64,000 nt of DNA. It comes from Acutalibacteraceae bacterium (GTDB lineage Bacteria > Bacillota > Clostridia > Oscillospirales > Acutalibacteraceae). Both the position numbers and the translations under genes were made by a program. Below, piece by piece: positions 42,621 to 63,960 of the stretch. The stretch lies in contig JAZRKV010000031.1 of the NCBI GenBank assembly GCA_045646545.1, positions 7,707 through 71,706 of the forward strand, written 5' to 3'. Positions within the stretch are counted from its first letter, which is position 1. Each line of letters starts with the position of its first letter. A model generated the notes under the pieces. That model was given only the letters and a program-made list of their open reading frames with translations. It had not been told where the DNA came from and did no database searches.

Positions 42621-42657
42621 ACAAGGCGTAGCAGTTGCTACGCCTTGTATTTTTTTG
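42621..42657 (+). terminator. rho-independent terminator
   Basis: ACAAGGCGTAGC / GCTACGCCTTGT stem followed by T7. Confidence 0.8.
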
Positions 42658-42669
42658 GTGTTTGTGATA

Positions 42670-42880
42670 TTATTTTCAAGTCGGTTATGGAAACAGGTGC
42701 AAATCCTGTACGAGCCCGTCGCCGTGATATGCAATAAGCTTTCTTCTATCGGAATACCGCAATTCCGAGACACGCCATTGGATTTTTCTGAGAAGGTGAA
42801 GAAAGTGCATAAAGTCGAAATACTTGCCGACAATTGCCGTTTCACCTGCGAGTGCCTGAAGGGAACGGATACAAAAATAT
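42670..42880 (+). promoter_or_regulatory. cobalamin (B12) riboswitch
   Basis: Core GGAAACAGGTGCAAATCCTGTACGAGCCCGTCGCCGTGA, then GCCATTGG..GAAGGTG, then the B12-box-like AAGTCGAAATACTTGCC. A possible P1 pairs GTCGG 42680-42684 with CCGAC 42827-42831. Confidence 0.8.
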
Positions 42881-58043: not shown

Positions 58044-59828
58044 CTATTGTTCCATATCCAAAAGAAACATTTCTGTGCTATGTTTTGGTACGTTAAGCGT
58101 AATTTCTTGTGTTTGACAAAGCTCTCCGCTCCACAAATACTTTATTTTAGTATTTTGTGGAAATTTAATTTTTGTTTCAGTGTCATTTACGGTATGAATT
58201 GCAAAAAATCCTTGTGTACGATACACAACACATCCATCCATATTATAACAATGCACACCCTTTGCCACAAGAGAATCACGAAGTTCATCTACTGTAAAGG
58301 GCTCTGCTCTGCCTTGCGTTGAAACATACGGAACACCGAGTTTCTGGCACAATTCAGTAGCTTTTTCTCCAACTTCCGATGGTTCAAATGCCGTGAATAT
58401 AACAGCCTTATACTTGTTGATAATATCCTTTGCATCCTCAACCATACAAATATCAAAGGGTATCCCCGTATTACCCATGGCAAGACGCATTTCGTTAACC
58501 CTATGCACACCAAAATGACCTCTCGGCAAATTCCTGTATGCTTTTTCATCAACAAAAAGAACTACATCTGACATAGACGGCCCTTGATTTTTCGATTCAA
58601 CTTCTTCGTAAAGCTTCTTCAACCTTGCAAGCTCTTCCATAATATCATCGCTACGGTACCATCCGCCCCACATATCAAACCACCATATTCCTGATGATTT
58701 TGCTAGTTGGTGAGAAAATGCTTTTCGAATTGCTGATACAGAAAGTTCTGTACTTTCCGGTCCGCTCCACGCAGTTTTGTTACCATCCTTATCAATCAAA
58801 GGGTAAAACTCATCTGGATACATACCGGGACGCGAATCTTGCATTCTTTTTGTAAAATTTGTGCGTATATCACACTCAATAAACGCTAATTTATTATGAA
58901 GCTTCAAAGAATCCACGGGAATCATATCTCCCCAGTCAACACCTAATGCTCTGTTTCTGTCGTAACCACATGGTGAAGAAAAGAAATCAATATACGGTGA
59001 TGAAATAATTTCACCTAAACCTTGTAATCCCCAAAGAGTGTCGGGCACAAAAGCGTTATAGCCATAAAAAATGCCAACAATTTGCTCATTATTTATAATC
59101 TCTTTTACTGTTTTTGCAAAATATTCAATTGTTTTTGTGTGCTCGGTATTACAAAACTCGTAATACATTTTTGTCTCTTCTGTAAAAATACCATTACAAA
59201 AATCTTCTTTTGTTGGAACAGTTATATTTTCTATACTGTATTTTTCTTTTGCCCATTCCACAAATTTTTTCATTCCCATTTCAGAAAATGAACCACAAAG
59301 ATCGTGGTGAATCCACTCCTGAGTTGTACCGCCGCAAAGCTGATAACCTGCAACTCTGTTACTATATGACGCAGAGCGAATATGCAAAACAAGTTCTTTT
59401 AAAAGTTCTGCACCATCAGTTTTAAATTTGTCGGAATATAAAGATTCCCTGTTACAACCACAAGGTGTTTCAACTGTTTCGTATATATTATTTTTAATCC
59501 ACTTTCGCGGCATTGCAATATTAATTCTTGGAAAGATAAGCGCATCAGGACATTTTGATATTATGTTGTTTACAATATCATCAAAATCGGAATAATCTTC
59601 ATTTTCTCCTTCAAAAACACCTTTTAAAAAGGGACTGAATCCGTTAACGTTATTTATGGGTAAATCTGTAAATGAAACATTTACAAAAAACATTCTGTAA
59701 CCGCTTTTTATAAAGTCTTCATATTCTCCACACTCATCAAAATAAGTTGTGTAAGCAAGAGGCGCAAAAAACTGTTTATCAATTTCTATTGCAGGCTTGC
59801 CGTTTACAAATTTTATCGCAGATTTCAA
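58044..59828 (-). CDS. hypothetical glycoside-hydrolase-like protein (GH42-like TIM barrel plus amidotransferase-like domain, tentative)
   Basis: Contains GYQLCGGTTQEW and WWFDMWGGWY segments. The proposed start TTG 59828 lies 7 nt after AGGTGGTGA. The track ORF start GTG 59903 lies inside a terminator stem. Confidence 0.5.
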   Translation of the reverse strand: MKSAIKFVNGKPAIEIDKQFFAPLAYTTYFDECGEYEDFIKSGYRMFFVNVSFTDLPINNVNGFSPFLKGVFEGENEDYSDFDDIVNNIISKCPDALIFPRINIAMPRKWIKNNIYETVETPCGCNRESLYSDKFKTDGAELLKELVLHIRSASYSNRVAGYQLCGGTTQEWIHHDLCGSFSEMGMKKFVEWAKEKYSIENITVPTKEDFCNGIFTEETKMYYEFCNTEHTKTIEYFAKTVKEIINNEQIVGIFYGYNAFVPDTLWGLQGLGEIISSPYIDFFSSPCGYDRNRALGVDWGDMIPVDSLKLHNKLAFIECDIRTNFTKRMQDSRPGMYPDEFYPLIDKDGNKTAWSGPESTELSVSAIRKAFSHQLAKSSGIWWFDMWGGWYRSDDIMEELARLKKLYEEVESKNQGPSMSDVVLFVDEKAYRNLPRGHFGVHRVNEMRLAMGNTGIPFDICMVEDAKDIINKYKAVIFTAFEPSEVGEKATELCQKLGVPYVSTQGRAEPFTVDELRDSLVAKGVHCYNMDGCVVYRTQGFFAIHTVNDTETKIKFPQNTKIKYLWSGELCQTQEITLNVPKHSTEMFLLDMEQ

Positions 59829-59891
59829 TTCACCGTCACCACCTGAAGTAATTGTAACATTACATAAAAAATAATGCAATTCAGAAAAAAT

Positions 59892-59935
59892 AAAAATCCG
59901 CACGTTTTAGAAAGATTAAAACTTGCGGATTTTAA
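59892..59935. terminator. bidirectional terminator
   Basis: ATCCGCA-c-GTTTTA / TAAAAC-t-TGCGGAT stem flanked by an A-run and a T-run. Confidence 0.7.
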
Positions 59936-59940
59936 AACCT

Positions 59941-60108
59941 TTAATTTATCATTGCCCTTAAAACAGTGGCTAATTCACCTTTTTCAATAGGAATGAGTTG
60001 TAATTTTTTATATTGCTTTTCAGGTGCTTTTATAAATATCTCTTTTTCAATAAAAACACCTGCTCTCTTGCATTGTTCTTTACCTAAAAATTCATTTACA
60101 TTTTTGAT
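59941..60108 (-). other. 55-codon stop-free frame (-1 relative to the 1011-aa ORF) lacking a canonical start
   Basis: Translation is IKNVNEFLGKEQCKRAGVFIEKEIFIKAPEKQYKKLQLIPIEKGELATVLRAMIN*. It overlaps the ORF end at an A5 run (60101-60105) and ends 6 nt before the terminator. Confidence 0.3.
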
Positions 60109-63100
60109 TCACCGATCGCAGAACGAACAACTTTCCTTGAAGGTAACATTTTTATGCCAGGAACATTGTCATACCACGTGCTTAGTATGTTAGAATTTAG
60201 CTTCTGCATCTTTTTAAGTTCTCTTGATGCCGCATAAATATCTGTTGACAAGTATAATTCCGGTTTAACAATTAATCCAGCGGCTTCGTCTTTAGAAATC
60301 AATGCGTTTGTTTGTCCACCAGTCAAAAGCTTATTATAATTTGCATATAACAACGGGCAATTAGATTTCAACAAAGCCGGCACATTAGGGTAGATATACT
60401 TTTCAATAATATCCCATGCGAAATACGGTGTTATCGTTAAATCAAACGGATTAACATAGATATGATTATAAAAATCTATGTCTACAATGGCACCGTGTAT
60501 ATATCCTGATCCCCCGATGTCCTTAACTGTATTGGAAATTTGCAGTTGAATTGATTGAAATTTATCCAGGGGAGCTTTAATATACGCAATTTCTGCATCC
60601 ATATTGTCATAATACCACTGAATATCTTTGCTGTTTAATGATTTCAAACTACCACCATTTAACATTGTTAAACCGCCGGAAAGATTTTCATGAATGAAAC
60701 AATAGTAGTCATTCTTCTTTAACATATACAGCTTATTGATATCTCTGTTAAATGTAAGGGGTAGATTCTTTCCACGATAGAAATTGATATAATCATCCCT
60801 CGTGATCGTATGAATACCATCTTCGTAATCCGAAAACCAATCATACATATTGTCTATATAGAAATACTTTAGTCTCGGATGTTCTGTATAATATCCCACT
60901 TGATTATCAGCGTATATTCTGATGATACCATCATCATAAAAATCATTCTTATGATTATGACCGCTAACATATACGAAATCATTTTGACGGCATCCTTCTT
61001 TATGCCAATCAGTAAAGGGCATATGCGTAAAAACAACAATGTTTTTATCTGACAAACAAGCGCAAATTCGATCGTACAGGTTTTCAAAATTTTCGCTTTC
61101 GGACAACTCATCTTCACGAGATAAAGTTGAGAGGTATATTCCATTGTTTGCGTTAAACTCCTGGTTATACCTGGAAAAACCTATACCGCCAAATATAATC
61201 ATACGAGCAGTACGCAGTCTTTCTCTTATCTCTTCATCCGTAAGTTCATTTAGTCCCTGCTGCGGAATACAGAGGATATTACTTGTTTCATCTAAGTACA
61301 GAATTTCATTTTGAATTAGATGCATGTTATTATTCGTAAGTAAGCATCTGTATTCTTCTACAATACTATGTAAAGGATGTCCTTGAAATCCCCACAGCTC
61401 GTGGTTGCCCAATATAAATACGACTTTAGCATACAATCGAAGTTCATCAATTGTCTTTCGTAATAAATTGACAAACAACTCATATACCCAAAATTCTGAT
61501 GCGATGTCACCACCGATTAGAATGAGACTTCCAAACGGCTTATCTTCAAGTAGCGTGTCAATAATGCGTTGAACAACATATACACAATCATCTTGGGTTA
61601 CGCAGTGTGCGTGATGTATTCTGTGCATTAAATGCAAATCGGTAATGTAATAAATCTTCTTCTCGTCAGCAGAGTTTTCGAACGTCGAAAGCTCTGCACG
61701 ATCTGTTTTGAGAATAAGGGATGTTTCAGTTTCATTACTGCTTACTGTGGCAAATTCTTTAGTTTCATCTTTCAGGCGTTCAGATTTATCACAACGCAAG
61801 CCAAGCCTTTTAGCAAGGATACTTTGTATTCGTGCATTTTCTAAATTGAAATCTGAAAAATCGGTTATGTTTTGCAATCCATCGCAGAACAGCAAATCTG
61901 CATCAGATAAGTCATTGTTTAAGAATGCTACAAAGTCAAAGAAGTAATTAAAAGCTATCTTTTTCTCAAAGACTTCAACCTTTTTTGCGGTGTACCATTT
62001 TACAATTACTTCAAACCGTGATTTGATTCTGTTATATCTTTTTGAGACAACTTTCTTTAAGTTGGATAAAGCATTTATTGGCAACTTGGTTGCGCTGCTC
62101 GTCTTGAATAAAGAAAAATCCTCACGTAATATACTTGCTTTTGAAAGGTCGCAATCTGATAGATCATTTCCTAAAAATTCGGTAAATTCTGCGAATGTTT
62201 CAAAATACTTATATAATTCTGCGACTGGACGCTTGTTAAAATCAGTTCCTAAGTAAATACTGGTTTTAACGCAGTAATAATGAGTATGTTTGTCAAAGTA
62301 TTTTGCTGTTTTACTTGTAACCTCTGTGTTTGCAATTTCCTCAACTGCACGCTTGAACTGGGAATTGTGCTTTTTATTAGTCGAAGCAACACCACCGGTA
62401 TATTTATACGCTTTTAGCACTCTTTCGGCACCAAATAAGAAACATAGTGCTTTTTCAAATCTGTATGCTGGGTATTGCCCCGTGCACACAAATTGCATAA
62501 TAACATCGAAGGCTTTTTCACCGTGATGATTGATGTAATTCCAGATATAGAATTCTTCATCAGTACAATCTTTAGAGTCTTCATGCTTTCTGTTTACAGA
62601 AAGCAATTCCTTATATGTAGAGCAAGCGTTATACTTCTTGATCCATTTTTTGCGTAACGGCATCTGACTTTCAATTTCATTAAATTCTTCTTTTTCGTCA
62701 GCAGAAGCATCGGGCAAAAGATCATCGACAGTACAACTCAAATTAGAGTGCATATTAAGTCTATCTATATCAAGTTTAAATTGATTAATAATGTCAGTTG
62801 CGAAAGTATATTGAAAGTAGCAGGAATTTTCGTAGATATCGCCTTGCAAAAACTCAAAGTATGCTTGAAAATCTGTAAAAGTATTTACAATCTTCTTTTC
62901 GGACAACTCTTGCGCATAATTGCTTACAACTATAATCTCCTCAACAAAAAACAATTTTGTAATGATATCATATCCGCACTTAGTTGTTTTTCGCAAGCCG
63001 AGCTTTCGAGTGATTGCTATAATCTCATATTCATTATGATATTCTTCAGGGATTTCACTATAGCTCTTAATCTCTTTCTTCTTCAAATTCTTTATATAAT

Positions 63101-63131
63101 CTTCAAGAACGCAGGCTATCTCTTTGCTCAA
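60096..63131 (-). CDS. large multidomain protein: three N-terminal repeat modules, a calcineurin-like metallophosphoesterase core and an unknown C-terminal domain
   Basis: TTG start 5 nt after GAGGTGG. Phosphoesterase motifs appear in order: YITDLH, GGDI, LGNHE, FTHMP, SGHNH. N-terminal repeats read F..F.EFL..DLSD.DL. Confidence 0.8.
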   Translation of the reverse strand: MSKEIACVLEDYIKNLKKKEIKSYSEIPEEYHNEYEIIAITRKLGLRKTTKCGYDIITKLFFVEEIIVVSNYAQELSEKKIVNTFTDFQAYFEFLQGDIYENSCYFQYTFATDIINQFKLDIDRLNMHSNLSCTVDDLLPDASADEKEEFNEIESQMPLRKKWIKKYNACSTYKELLSVNRKHEDSKDCTDEEFYIWNYINHHGEKAFDVIMQFVCTGQYPAYRFEKALCFLFGAERVLKAYKYTGGVASTNKKHNSQFKRAVEEIANTEVTSKTAKYFDKHTHYYCVKTSIYLGTDFNKRPVAELYKYFETFAEFTEFLGNDLSDCDLSKASILREDFSLFKTSSATKLPINALSNLKKVVSKRYNRIKSRFEVIVKWYTAKKVEVFEKKIAFNYFFDFVAFLNNDLSDADLLFCDGLQNITDFSDFNLENARIQSILAKRLGLRCDKSERLKDETKEFATVSSNETETSLILKTDRAELSTFENSADEKKIYYITDLHLMHRIHHAHCVTQDDCVYVVQRIIDTLLEDKPFGSLILIGGDIASEFWVYELFVNLLRKTIDELRLYAKVVFILGNHELWGFQGHPLHSIVEEYRCLLTNNNMHLIQNEILYLDETSNILCIPQQGLNELTDEEIRERLRTARMIIFGGIGFSRYNQEFNANNGIYLSTLSREDELSESENFENLYDRICACLSDKNIVVFTHMPFTDWHKEGCRQNDFVYVSGHNHKNDFYDDGIIRIYADNQVGYYTEHPRLKYFYIDNMYDWFSDYEDGIHTITRDDYINFYRGKNLPLTFNRDINKLYMLKKNDYYCFIHENLSGGLTMLNGGSLKSLNSKDIQWYYDNMDAEIAYIKAPLDKFQSIQLQISNTVKDIGGSGYIHGAIVDIDFYNHIYVNPFDLTITPYFAWDIIEKYIYPNVPALLKSNCPLLYANYNKLLTGGQTNALISKDEAAGLIVKPELYLSTDIYAASRELKKMQKLNSNILSTWYDNVPGIKMLPSRKVVRSAIGESKM

Positions 63132-63335
63132 TTATTCCACCTCGGCTTTCGTAGGGATAGTAGTCCAAATCATTTTCTTACACTATAGCAGAAAATCATG
63201 ACTTTTTCTACACTTTTCTGAAACATTATAACGGCAGGACGAAAAATCATCCTACCGCTTAGTTCTTATGACACAAGCTGTTTGTTGGCTGAATATCAGA
63301 CATTTTTAAAACTATCACATATAATAGTGAATAAG

Positions 63336-63374
63336 TAAAAAAATTCCGTCCACTATCGTGAACGGATTTTTTTG
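63336..63374. terminator. bidirectional terminator hairpin
   Basis: TCCGT-c-CAC..GTG-a-ACGGA stem flanked by A7 and T7. Confidence 0.6.
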
Positions 63375-63411
63375 TATCTATGTAACGAAAATCAAACTAT
63401 AAAATAATTAT

Positions 63412-63587
63412 CAAATCCGAAGGATTTGTATATCATCAATTTTGCAGAAATTGCATATCATCAAAACGAAGTTTTGTATATCATCAAGCCGACAGAAATA
63501 CACACCTGAAGGTGTGATGAGATACAAAGGCGGCTCACCGCCTTTGATGATATACACCTACGGTGATGATATACCAATCCTGTCGGC
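63412..63587. repeat. mosaic of six short hairpins interleaved with three direct and three inverted copies of GTATATCATC
   Basis: Direct copies at 63428, about 63454 and 63476. Inverted GATGA(T/G)ATAC copies at 63516, 63546 and 63565. GCCGACAG (63488) pairs with CTGTCGGC (63580). Confidence 0.6.
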
Positions 63588-63593
63588 TTGGAT

Positions 63594-63627
63594 AAAAAAA
63601 TAGCGAAGCAAATGTTTCGCTATTTTT
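63594..63627. terminator. bidirectional terminator after tRNA-Asn
   Basis: TAGCGAA / TTCGCTA stem flanked by A7 and T6. Confidence 0.65.
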
Positions 63628-63703
63628 TGGCGCCTCCTGATGGACTCGAACCAACGACACCCTGGTTAACAGCCAGGTGCTCTACCGACTGAGCTAAGAA
63701 GGC
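63628..63703 (-). tRNA. tRNA-Asn (GTT)
   Basis: The reverse complement GCCTTCTTAGCTCAGTCGGTAGAGCACCTGGCTGTTAACCAGG..GGAGGCGCCA folds as a cloverleaf with anticodon loop CTGTTAA and an encoded CCA. Confidence 0.9.
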
Positions 63704-63733
63704 ATATGACCGGATGAAACATCCGGTGTTTGT

Positions 63734-63849
63734 GTCGGCATCGCCCTATTTTCCCAAGCGGCTTCCCACTAAGTATCTTCGGCGTAGTTGAGCTTAACTA
63801 CCGTGTTCGGGATGGGAACGGGTGGACCCTCAACGCCATCAACACCGAC
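63734..63849 (-). rRNA. rrf: 5S ribosomal RNA
   Basis: The reverse complement GTCGGTGTTGATGGCG..CCACCCGTTCCCATCCCGAACACGGTAGTTAAGC..GGGCGATGCCGAC matches the conserved 5S core. The ends are approximate. Confidence 0.85.
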
Positions 63850-63884: not shown

Positions 63885-63960
63885 TGGTGACCCGTACGAG
63901 ATTCGAACTCGTGTTGCCGGCGTGAGAGGCCGGAGTCTTAGGCCACTTGACCAACGGGCC
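63885..63960 (-). tRNA. tRNA-Glu (CTC)
   Basis: The reverse complement GGCCCGTTGGTCAAGTGGCCTAAGACTCCGGCCTCTCACGCCGG..ACGGGTCACCA has anticodon loop CTCTCAC. Confidence 0.9.

Follow-up and report, generated by a model that had tools for sequence, protein, structure and literature searches.

What does a protein do that joins repeated N-terminal modules to a calcineurin-like metallophosphoesterase (MPE) and then to a long, strongly conserved C-terminal domain (hereafter Cdom)? The question is raised by a gene of 1011 codons in a 64,000-nucleotide stretch of DNA (the window) from an Acutalibacteraceae bacterium (contig JAZRKV010000031.1, positions 7,707 to 71,706), where a first-pass annotation, made from the letters of the window, had proposed a single-gene defence or stress system in an island beside a tRNA gene. 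Our analysis leads us to regard the product as a candidate cytoplasmic single-chain effector acting against phages or other mobile elements, a reading that we put at about an even chance. Taken as a whole the family is consistent with what prokaryotic conflict systems look like: a constrained Cdom, swappable hydrolases, variable receptor-like modules, a GC content that is low relative to the hosts, a patchy phylogeny, carriage on transposons and in defence islands, and the lack of any partner gene.

Domain architecture and the C-terminal chassis

A single uninterrupted open reading frame (ORF) encodes the 1011-residue protein, as the first-pass annotation had it. Its TTG start codon is preceded by a Shine-Dalgarno sequence, GAGGTGG, at 63137-63143 with a gap of 5 nt (read from the sequence), and the homolog P0001, which is 93% identical with zero gaps across all 1011 residues, begins at the same residue. 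Between close copies the ratio of nonsynonymous to synonymous substitution rates (dN/dS) is 0.17-0.20 overall, with 0.07-0.09 for the Cdom, 0.18-0.22 for the N-terminal region and 0.21-0.31 for the MPE; the low value in every region argues that all parts are functional. The ORF is real, intact and under purifying selection, and no protein identical to its product is on record. Within the cluster of P0001, one 80,161-bp contig carries P0512 (140 aa) and P0518 (822 aa), a near-identical gene split in two, which may be a frameshifted or decaying copy.

Pfam finds one domain in the whole protein, Metallophos, where the five motifs of a calcineurin-like phosphoesterase had been read (Table 1), and the motif residues D498, H500, D542, N576, H577, H703, H725 and H727 are invariant in 46 of the 46 full-length homologs (43-80% identity) used to assess conservation. 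In Foldseek searches against the PDB, an AlphaFold2 model of the full protein from a 46-sequence alignment (pLDDT 85.4, pTM 0.76) matches SbcD (7dog, E 6e-4), Mre11 (6x1z, E 1e-3) and, in third rank with a TM-score of 0.51, Rv0805 (2hy1, E 3.6e-3), each at probability 1.00; against BFVD it matches phage MPEs, again at probability 1.00, with TM-scores up to 0.62. All matches of the full-length model in these two collections fall in the MPE domain. At the sequence level the PDB returned only 6unc, a weak MPE motif at E ~1, both by phmmer and by hmmsearch with the 46-sequence profile. The catalytic site appears intact, and the domain is putatively an active binuclear-metal phosphoesterase.

The remainder of the protein is without such relatives. 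Neither the N-terminal modules, whose fold was searched as part of the full-length model, nor the Cdom, also searched against the PDB as a separate model (pLDDT 84.3, pTM 0.76), has a match in Pfam, NCBIfam, PHROGs, PADLOC, the PDB or BFVD, and the best E-value of the Cdom model against the PDB by Foldseek is 0.59, in line with the earlier remark that this domain could not be recognised. A link to a described family came from plasmids: in a tBLASTn search only residues 769-999 were matched, by a 569-aa hypothetical protein of Limosilactobacillus reuteri plasmids whose N-terminal 254 residues match the PADLOC family PDC-S61 end to end (E 7e-81) and also match a DRT-associated PD-(D/E)xK model. 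More than 120 such PD-(D/E)xK-Cdom proteins, of 560-870 aa, form a sister family whose Cdom is 27-33% identical to that of the MPE family, and 17 residues are invariant in a joint alignment of the two (G772, Y781, K805, G826, H879, G880, I882, D884, H890, N894, P895, Y903, A905, L920, P926, Y966 and S969). Judging by domain content, the MPE is interchangeable with a PD-(D/E)xK nuclease on a shared Cdom chassis, and the cluster of conserved H, D and N residues together with its low dN/dS makes the Cdom conserved enough for a specific biochemical role. An exhaustive Cdom search of a representative library yielded 1050 clusters at 50% identity, 931 of them at E<=1e-10. On L. reuteri plasmid pAN417A (L095, 4578-21426), the PD-(D/E)xK-Cdom gene lies amid IS30, IS3 and IS200/IS605-TnpB elements, and the same region carries integrases, two MazF toxins and an Eco57I-type restriction-modification gene.

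The N-terminal half of the window protein holds three copies of a beta-beta-beta-alpha module, at about residues 45-95, 271-319 and 359-403 in the AlphaFold2 model. The repeats are real, because modules 2 and 3 align by BLASTP (E 3e-6) and hidden Markov models (HMMs) built from each of the three (N1, N2 and N3) match the other modules throughout the family. The first-pass annotation had described three modules each ending in F..F.EFL..DLSD.DL; three related modules are indeed present, but module 1 is a degenerate copy without the DLSDxDL tail, and only two of these short stretches exist. The invariant residues of module 1 in the 46-homolog alignment are P28, R42, R47, G53, F61, I99 and Y100. 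The helical insert that separates modules 1 and 2 (residues 131-268) is missing from family members of about 800 aa. A suggested resemblance to pentapeptide repeats was not borne out, as Pfam gives no match to PF00805 at E<=1 for the whole protein or for residues 1-470 alone. DNA mimicry by the N-terminal region was considered and set aside at a net charge per module of just -5 to +3, as was a secreted or membrane protein, there being no hydrophobic segment (maximum KD19 1.39); the protein is predicted to be cytoplasmic.

Across the family, local-HMM typing shows an MPE-Cdom core of about 550-750 aa carrying 0, 1, 2 or 3 N-terminal modules, with occasional C-terminal additions in the form of BspA-type leucine-rich repeats (LRR_5) or DUF4379 zinc fingers. 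A further C-terminal repeat of about 45 aa, which we call FEDG (consensus MxCGhxATVIxxxxxxDITVQFEDGxxxxHxRRDxFxxGKI; no Pfam match), occurs optionally in 1-3 copies in both the MPE-Cdom and the PD-(D/E)xK-Cdom families, and was seen in homologs P0001, P0003, P0009, P0012 and P0127. The window gene is without it; its relative L102 has a decayed remnant past the stop codon (L102:5600-5738). We propose tentatively, at somewhat less than an even chance, that the Cdom is a new fold acting as a constant sensing or regulatory module or as a second catalytic one, and that it would mark a Bacillota single-chain immune superfamily of about 1050 clusters, in which effectors (MPE, PD-(D/E)xK) and receptor-like modules (beta-beta-beta-alpha, LRR, zinc fingers, FEDG) are shuffled, and whose promoter-plus-ORF cassettes would move between transposons, integrative and conjugative elements (ICEs), defence islands and bare chromosomal sites.

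Mobility, genomic company and competing explanations

The gene is mobile as a promoter-plus-ORF unit, which recurs in three other loci at 80-95% identity between flanks that are unrelated on both sides (Table 1). The shared segment begins roughly 130-176 bp 5' of the start codon, and the flanks of the L012-L014, L103 and L102 copies have 43-47% GC vs 36% for the segment itself. More than 329 full-length homologs were collected, from Clostridia where named, mostly in metagenome-assembled loci. When 185,579 species, each represented by one genome, were scanned with a sequence pattern, 236 proved to carry the gene. These carriers are scattered over Lachnospiraceae (Blautia, Roseburia, Agathobacter), Oscillospiraceae, Clostridium, Erysipelotrichaceae and Bacilli; Candidatus Geddesella stercoravicola gave the nearest match, 95% across a partial gene. 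A degenerate-pattern scan of JGI metagenomes for related strains returned 0 contigs, and the collections searched held no close relative of the window's host. Across 92 loci, with neighbouring genes called by a naive longest-ORF rule, there is no conserved neighbour or partner gene; the short ORFs that precede the gene in L008 and L103 do not cluster, and a conserved small upstream partner was accordingly rejected. The earlier view of a single-gene unit thus holds, in the sense of a self-contained, accessory, horizontally mobile and non-core gene.

Two further parts of the first-pass proposal, AT-richness and a tRNA-island position, fared differently. Among 62 homolog loci with 8 kb or more of flanking sequence, mean GC is 0.311 in the gene vs 0.430 in the flanks, and the gene is the lower in 58 of the 62. 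In the window, whose host is itself AT-rich (37.5% GC), the gene stands at 0.348 vs 0.380 +/- 0.020 across 44 ORFs (z -1.6), equals the adjacent glycosidase-like ORFs (0.354-0.358) and is not lower in GC3; its synonymous codon use is the most deviant among all genes of more than 600 aa in the window (z -1.7). Comparing the 62-locus gap with the local values, we conclude that the AT-rich signature is real for the family but weak in the window. As for the 'classic' tRNA island, we reject it: none of the ORFs listed for 56-64 kb was recognised as an integrase when read by eye, without a domain search, there is no att-like or other direct repeat flanking the unit in 59700-63720, and none of the homolog loci examined lies at a tRNA gene. 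The distance of about 250 bp given for tRNA-Asn is right from the edge of the unit, at the upstream hairpin (254 bp), but not from the start codon (497 bp).

Some homologs lie in defence islands. The homolog P0509 (93.7% identical) sits on a 133.7-kb contig between integrases. Upstream of it are an RE_NgoFVII-like protein and a Y-family polymerase; directly downstream follow a mad2-like methyltransferase, an mREase_IV-like helicase (E 1.5e-54), PDC-S07 (E 4e-43) and a type IV methyl-directed restriction enzyme at full length (E 7.8e-230). By its gene content this locus, one of the three in which the promoter-plus-ORF unit recurs, is a defence island on an integrative element. In 8-10 loci TnpV (Pfam) and an ORF of about 480 aa with a Mob/Pre-like N-terminus (by eye) come after the gene, and in 8 a serine-recombinase-like ORF (YARYSSDNQ motif) is third downstream, a position that corresponds, on these gene assignments, to the cargo slot of Tn4451-like mobilisable transposons. 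Elsewhere the L001 homolog adjoins a VapBC-type PIN toxin, that of L007 an Mrr nuclease, and that of L012 an integrase and a serine recombinase. The 150 proteins encoded no more than two genes from the MPE gene matched 114 PADLOC families, as against 37 for 150 proteins 6-10 kb off in the same loci. The count is crude, since a single helicase can match 25 families and the near set is swollen by HTH proteins; its direction is nevertheless clear. Matches in the near set include mad2/3/8, PDC-S04, PDC-S09, HEC-05, JetD and PDC-S41. In two Clostridium metagenome-assembled contigs, a 2369-aa ORF lies directly upstream of the MPE gene (L052/L053:2759-9868) and may be a giant ICE-type protein.

Under the effector reading, the conserved core would be the binuclear-metal MPE joined to the highly conserved Cdom, and the three N-terminal modules would form an accessory recognition or regulatory region of variable copy number. 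The protein would be held inactive until the N-terminal modules, the Cdom or both detect an invading phage or plasmid; the MPE would then hydrolyse phosphodiester bonds of nucleic acid or, less likely, attack nucleotide pools (dNTPs, NAD), and the invader's replication would halt. That a DNase-type fold can take the place of the MPE makes nucleic acid the more likely substrate. A precedent for the reading is PUA-Cal-HAD, in which a sensor domain is joined to a calcineurin-like effector and which is proven to act against phages via dNTP depletion (bioRxiv 10.64898/2026.01.15.699771). The defence function itself is inferred, and so are the substrate, the trigger and the part played by the N-terminal modules and Cdom as sensors.

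A number of observations weigh against this effector reading, beside the crudeness of the near/far count. The fold of the MPE fails to separate a nuclease from a nucleotide or cyclic-nucleotide phosphodiesterase. The 1011-aa protein matches 0 families in PADLOC-DB 2.0 at E<=1 and 0 in NCBIfam, and in PHROGs phosphoesterase families only; the earlier statement that the architecture fits no named system is borne out by the same PADLOC result. Many homologs sit alone among housekeeping genes, the window gene has glycosidase-like and housekeeping neighbours, the three PD-(D/E)xK-Cdom genes examined are each inserted singly among housekeeping genes, and PDC-S61 itself has candidate status only. Mobile-element cargo, moreover, can equally serve the element instead of the host. 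The chemistry of an MPE could serve either side: beside the precedent of PUA-Cal-HAD stands that of gp48, a phage MPE that reportedly causes damage to the DNA of the host and counteracts defence (PMC12287305).

That the protein works for the mobile element, as an anti-defence or inter-element competition factor whose MPE, by breaking down host DNA or immune nucleotide signals or by shutting out rival elements, would help the transposon or ICE that carries it to become established, seems to us unlikely. Frequent carriage as Tn4451-like transposon cargo, adjoining serine recombinases or integrases, the 2369-aa ORF next to the L052 copy, the precedent of gp48 and the likeness in fold to the cyclic-nucleotide phosphodiesterase Rv0805 all speak for it; yet 50,697 phage records hold 0 homologs, plasmids match at the level of the Cdom only, many chromosomal copies, the window's included, are without nearby mobile-element genes, a chain of about 1000 aa with variable receptor-like modules differs from known small anti-defence enzymes, and the nuclease of the sister family is listed as a defence candidate. 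Mobility also bears on the idea of a selfish, homing-endonuclease-like nuclease cassette that cuts empty sites, is copied into them as they are repaired and does the host no good. Such a cassette would resemble the discrete promoter-plus-ORF segment found in four unrelated contexts, genes of both the MPE-Cdom and the PD-(D/E)xK-Cdom type are seen inserted singly between housekeeping genes, and the optional small repeated C-terminal modules could bind DNA. We nonetheless consider it improbable: the junctions have neither flanking repeats nor a conserved target sequence, 3 kb is far above the known size of homing endonuclease genes, purifying selection is strong on all domains, N-terminal modules included, and the gene is often carried by transposons that have their own mobility genes.

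With no SbcC/Rad50 partner or conserved neighbour of any kind, no NCBIfam model, so few carriers among the species genomes, a GC content about 12 points below the flanks and near-identical copies in unrelated contexts, the family would make a very improbable ordinary enzyme, that is, a patchily distributed SbcD/Mre11-like repair nuclease or a nucleotide or stress phosphatase, even if SbcD and Mre11 are the best structural matches, the source annotation says simply 'metallophosphoesterase' and some neighbours are housekeeping genes. Should the effector reading hold, gut Clostridia (Blautia, Roseburia, Agathobacter and Oscillospiraceae among them) would gain a widespread defence system, two uncharacterised domains would be introduced, and small Tn4451-like mobilisable transposons would be seen to carry cargo of a defence type. 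The MPE-Cdom family escapes current defence finders, and the natural swap of MPE vs PD-(D/E)xK on one chassis offers an experimental handle on what the chassis senses.

The locus within the window

The boundaries that had been drawn around the unit stand, since the hairpins at both ends fold strongly (Table 1), and the one on the 5' side probably ends the transcript of the tRNA and 5S genes beyond it (tRNA-Asn 63628-63703, 5S rRNA 63733-63849, tRNA-Glu 63885-63960). A promoter region of its own, also claimed earlier, is present as a promoter-like site within the conserved part of the mobile segment, and its -10 region is found in L102 as well, an 80% relative. A third hairpin, at 63230-63259, has no U-tail, is followed just downstream by TATAAT, and falls precisely on the 5' boundary of what the window has in common with L103. 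It could be what is left of an insulating terminator, or an element with a role in regulation or recombination.

Table 1. Features of the MPE-Cdom locus, in window coordinates
Feature	Position	Strand	Basis or remark
ORF, 1011 aa	60096..63131 (stop codon included)	-	TTG start at 63131
Module 1, aa 1-130	62742..63131	-	AlphaFold2 secondary structure; three beta-strands then helix FTDFQAYFEFL
Helical insert between modules 1 and 2, aa 131-268	62328..62741	-	AlphaFold2 helices 144-268
Module 2, aa 269-345, ends FETFAEFTEFLGNDLSDCDLS	62097..62327	-	AlphaFold2; BLASTP vs module 3; HMM cross-hits
Module 3 and linker, aa 346-470, contains FNYFFDFVAFLNNDLSDADLL	61722..62096	-	AlphaFold2; BLASTP; HMM cross-hits
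Calcineurin-like MPE, aa 492-728	60948..61658	-	Pfam PF00149 Metallophos, E 1.3e-8; five motifs
Cdom, aa ~751-1000	60132..60881	-	Conserved; HGxIxDxDxxNHxYxNPxD (H879, D884, H890, N894, P895)
Mobile segment, promoter region and ORF to last sense codon	60099..63307	-	Shared with relatives; unrelated flanks both sides
Match to L012-L014	63307-60099	-	94.5% DNA identity
Match to L103	63260-60099	-	94.8% DNA identity
Match to L102	63245-60099	-	80.6% DNA identity
Promoter-like site TAGAAA, 17 nt, TGcTATAGT (extended -10)	63182..63210	-	Within segment conserved in L012, L103, L102
13-bp-stem hairpin, 5' edge of mobile segment	63230..63259	-	-21.4 kcal/mol, z -6.0
Terminator-like hairpin 3' of ORF	59892..59935		-17.5 kcal/mol, z -4.5; U-run after
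Bidirectional terminator-like hairpin 5' of unit, A-run and T-run flanks	63336..63374		-17.1 kcal/mol, z -5.5

Between the tRNA-Asn terminator and the upstream hairpin of the unit, outside the mobile segment, the stretch 63421-63582 holds six copies of the 13-nt motif TTGATGATATACA, three per orientation, bounded by an 18-nt inverted repeat that is 94% complementary. At up to 2 mismatches the motif has 15 matches in the window vs 3.4 expected, with all the matches of 0-1 mismatch inside this array, and there is no exact copy in 103 fetched loci. The array looks like a miniature inverted-repeat transposable element (MITE) or an array of protein-binding sites.

On the other side, the 619-aa GTG-start ORF listed at 58044-59903 (minus strand) overlaps the terminator hairpin. 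The public 594-aa protein P0386, which is 100% identical, suggests a start about 25 codons further in, which we provisionally place at TTG 59828 after GGTGGTGA. The closest homolog of this glycosidase-like neighbour beyond P0386 is only 64% identical. Farther off, and unrelated to the phosphoesterase gene, a cobalamin riboswitch lies at 42639-42845 (plus strand; Rfam RF00174, 48.8 bits, E 3.7e-9).

Comparison with known systems

The best PDB fold matches of the MPE, SbcD and Mre11, have the same five-motif active site. The TM-scores are low (0.39 on target), and unlike those proteins the window protein has no SbcC/Rad50 partner in 92 loci, no sequence-level match to them and extra domains at both ends. 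Of the class III cyclic-nucleotide phosphodiesterases (Rv0805/CpdA), Rv0805 comes third in fold behind SbcD and Mre11, and the PDB search gave no match at the sequence level. A functional analogy is Shedu (SduA), a one-protein system whose nuclease core comes with N-terminal domains that vary widely and are thought to act as sensors or inhibitors. The likeness is one of function and not of homology, as Shedu has the DUF4263 PD-(D/E)xK fold and the window protein has no PADLOC Shedu match.

Calcineurin-CE effectors of conflict systems, of which PUA-Cal-HAD is an example (Nicastro et al. 2023, as cited in bioRxiv 10.64898/2026.01.15.699771), resemble the window protein in that a calcineurin-superfamily phosphoesterase is fused to non-catalytic domains and stands in an apparent effector position. 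The catalytic metal ligands of PUA-Cal-HAD are essential (bioRxiv 10.64898/2026.01.15.699771). That system depletes dNTPs; the window protein has no PUA domain, no HAD partner gene and no conserved neighbour. With the Calcineurin-CE clade the context of the window's family is compatible, its MPE being interchangeable with a nuclease.

The nearest relatives are the fused forms of PDC-S61, a single-gene candidate proposed through 'guilt by embedding' in BREX, DISARM or type I restriction-modification loci (10.1101/2024.01.29.577857) and seen in a defence island of Streptococcus thermophilus (PMC11514479). The fusion on L. reuteri pAN417A (WP_174892039.1, 569 aa) has the Cdom in common with the window protein, at 29% identity over residues 769-999. 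Both families carry the same invariant H/D/N/P signature and the same optional FEDG repeats, and both are single-gene units, often inserted alone. They differ in that the fusion has a PD-(D/E)xK nuclease of about 250 aa in the place of the MPE and is without N-terminal repeat modules. The PADLOC model of PDC-S61 (PDLC05052) covers only the nuclease and finds no match in the window protein, which shares the Cdom alone with the fusions and is therefore not a PDC-S61 member. As far as its domains can be read, the MPE-Cdom protein is a family without a named system, distinct from PDC-S61 and built on the same C-terminal chassis.

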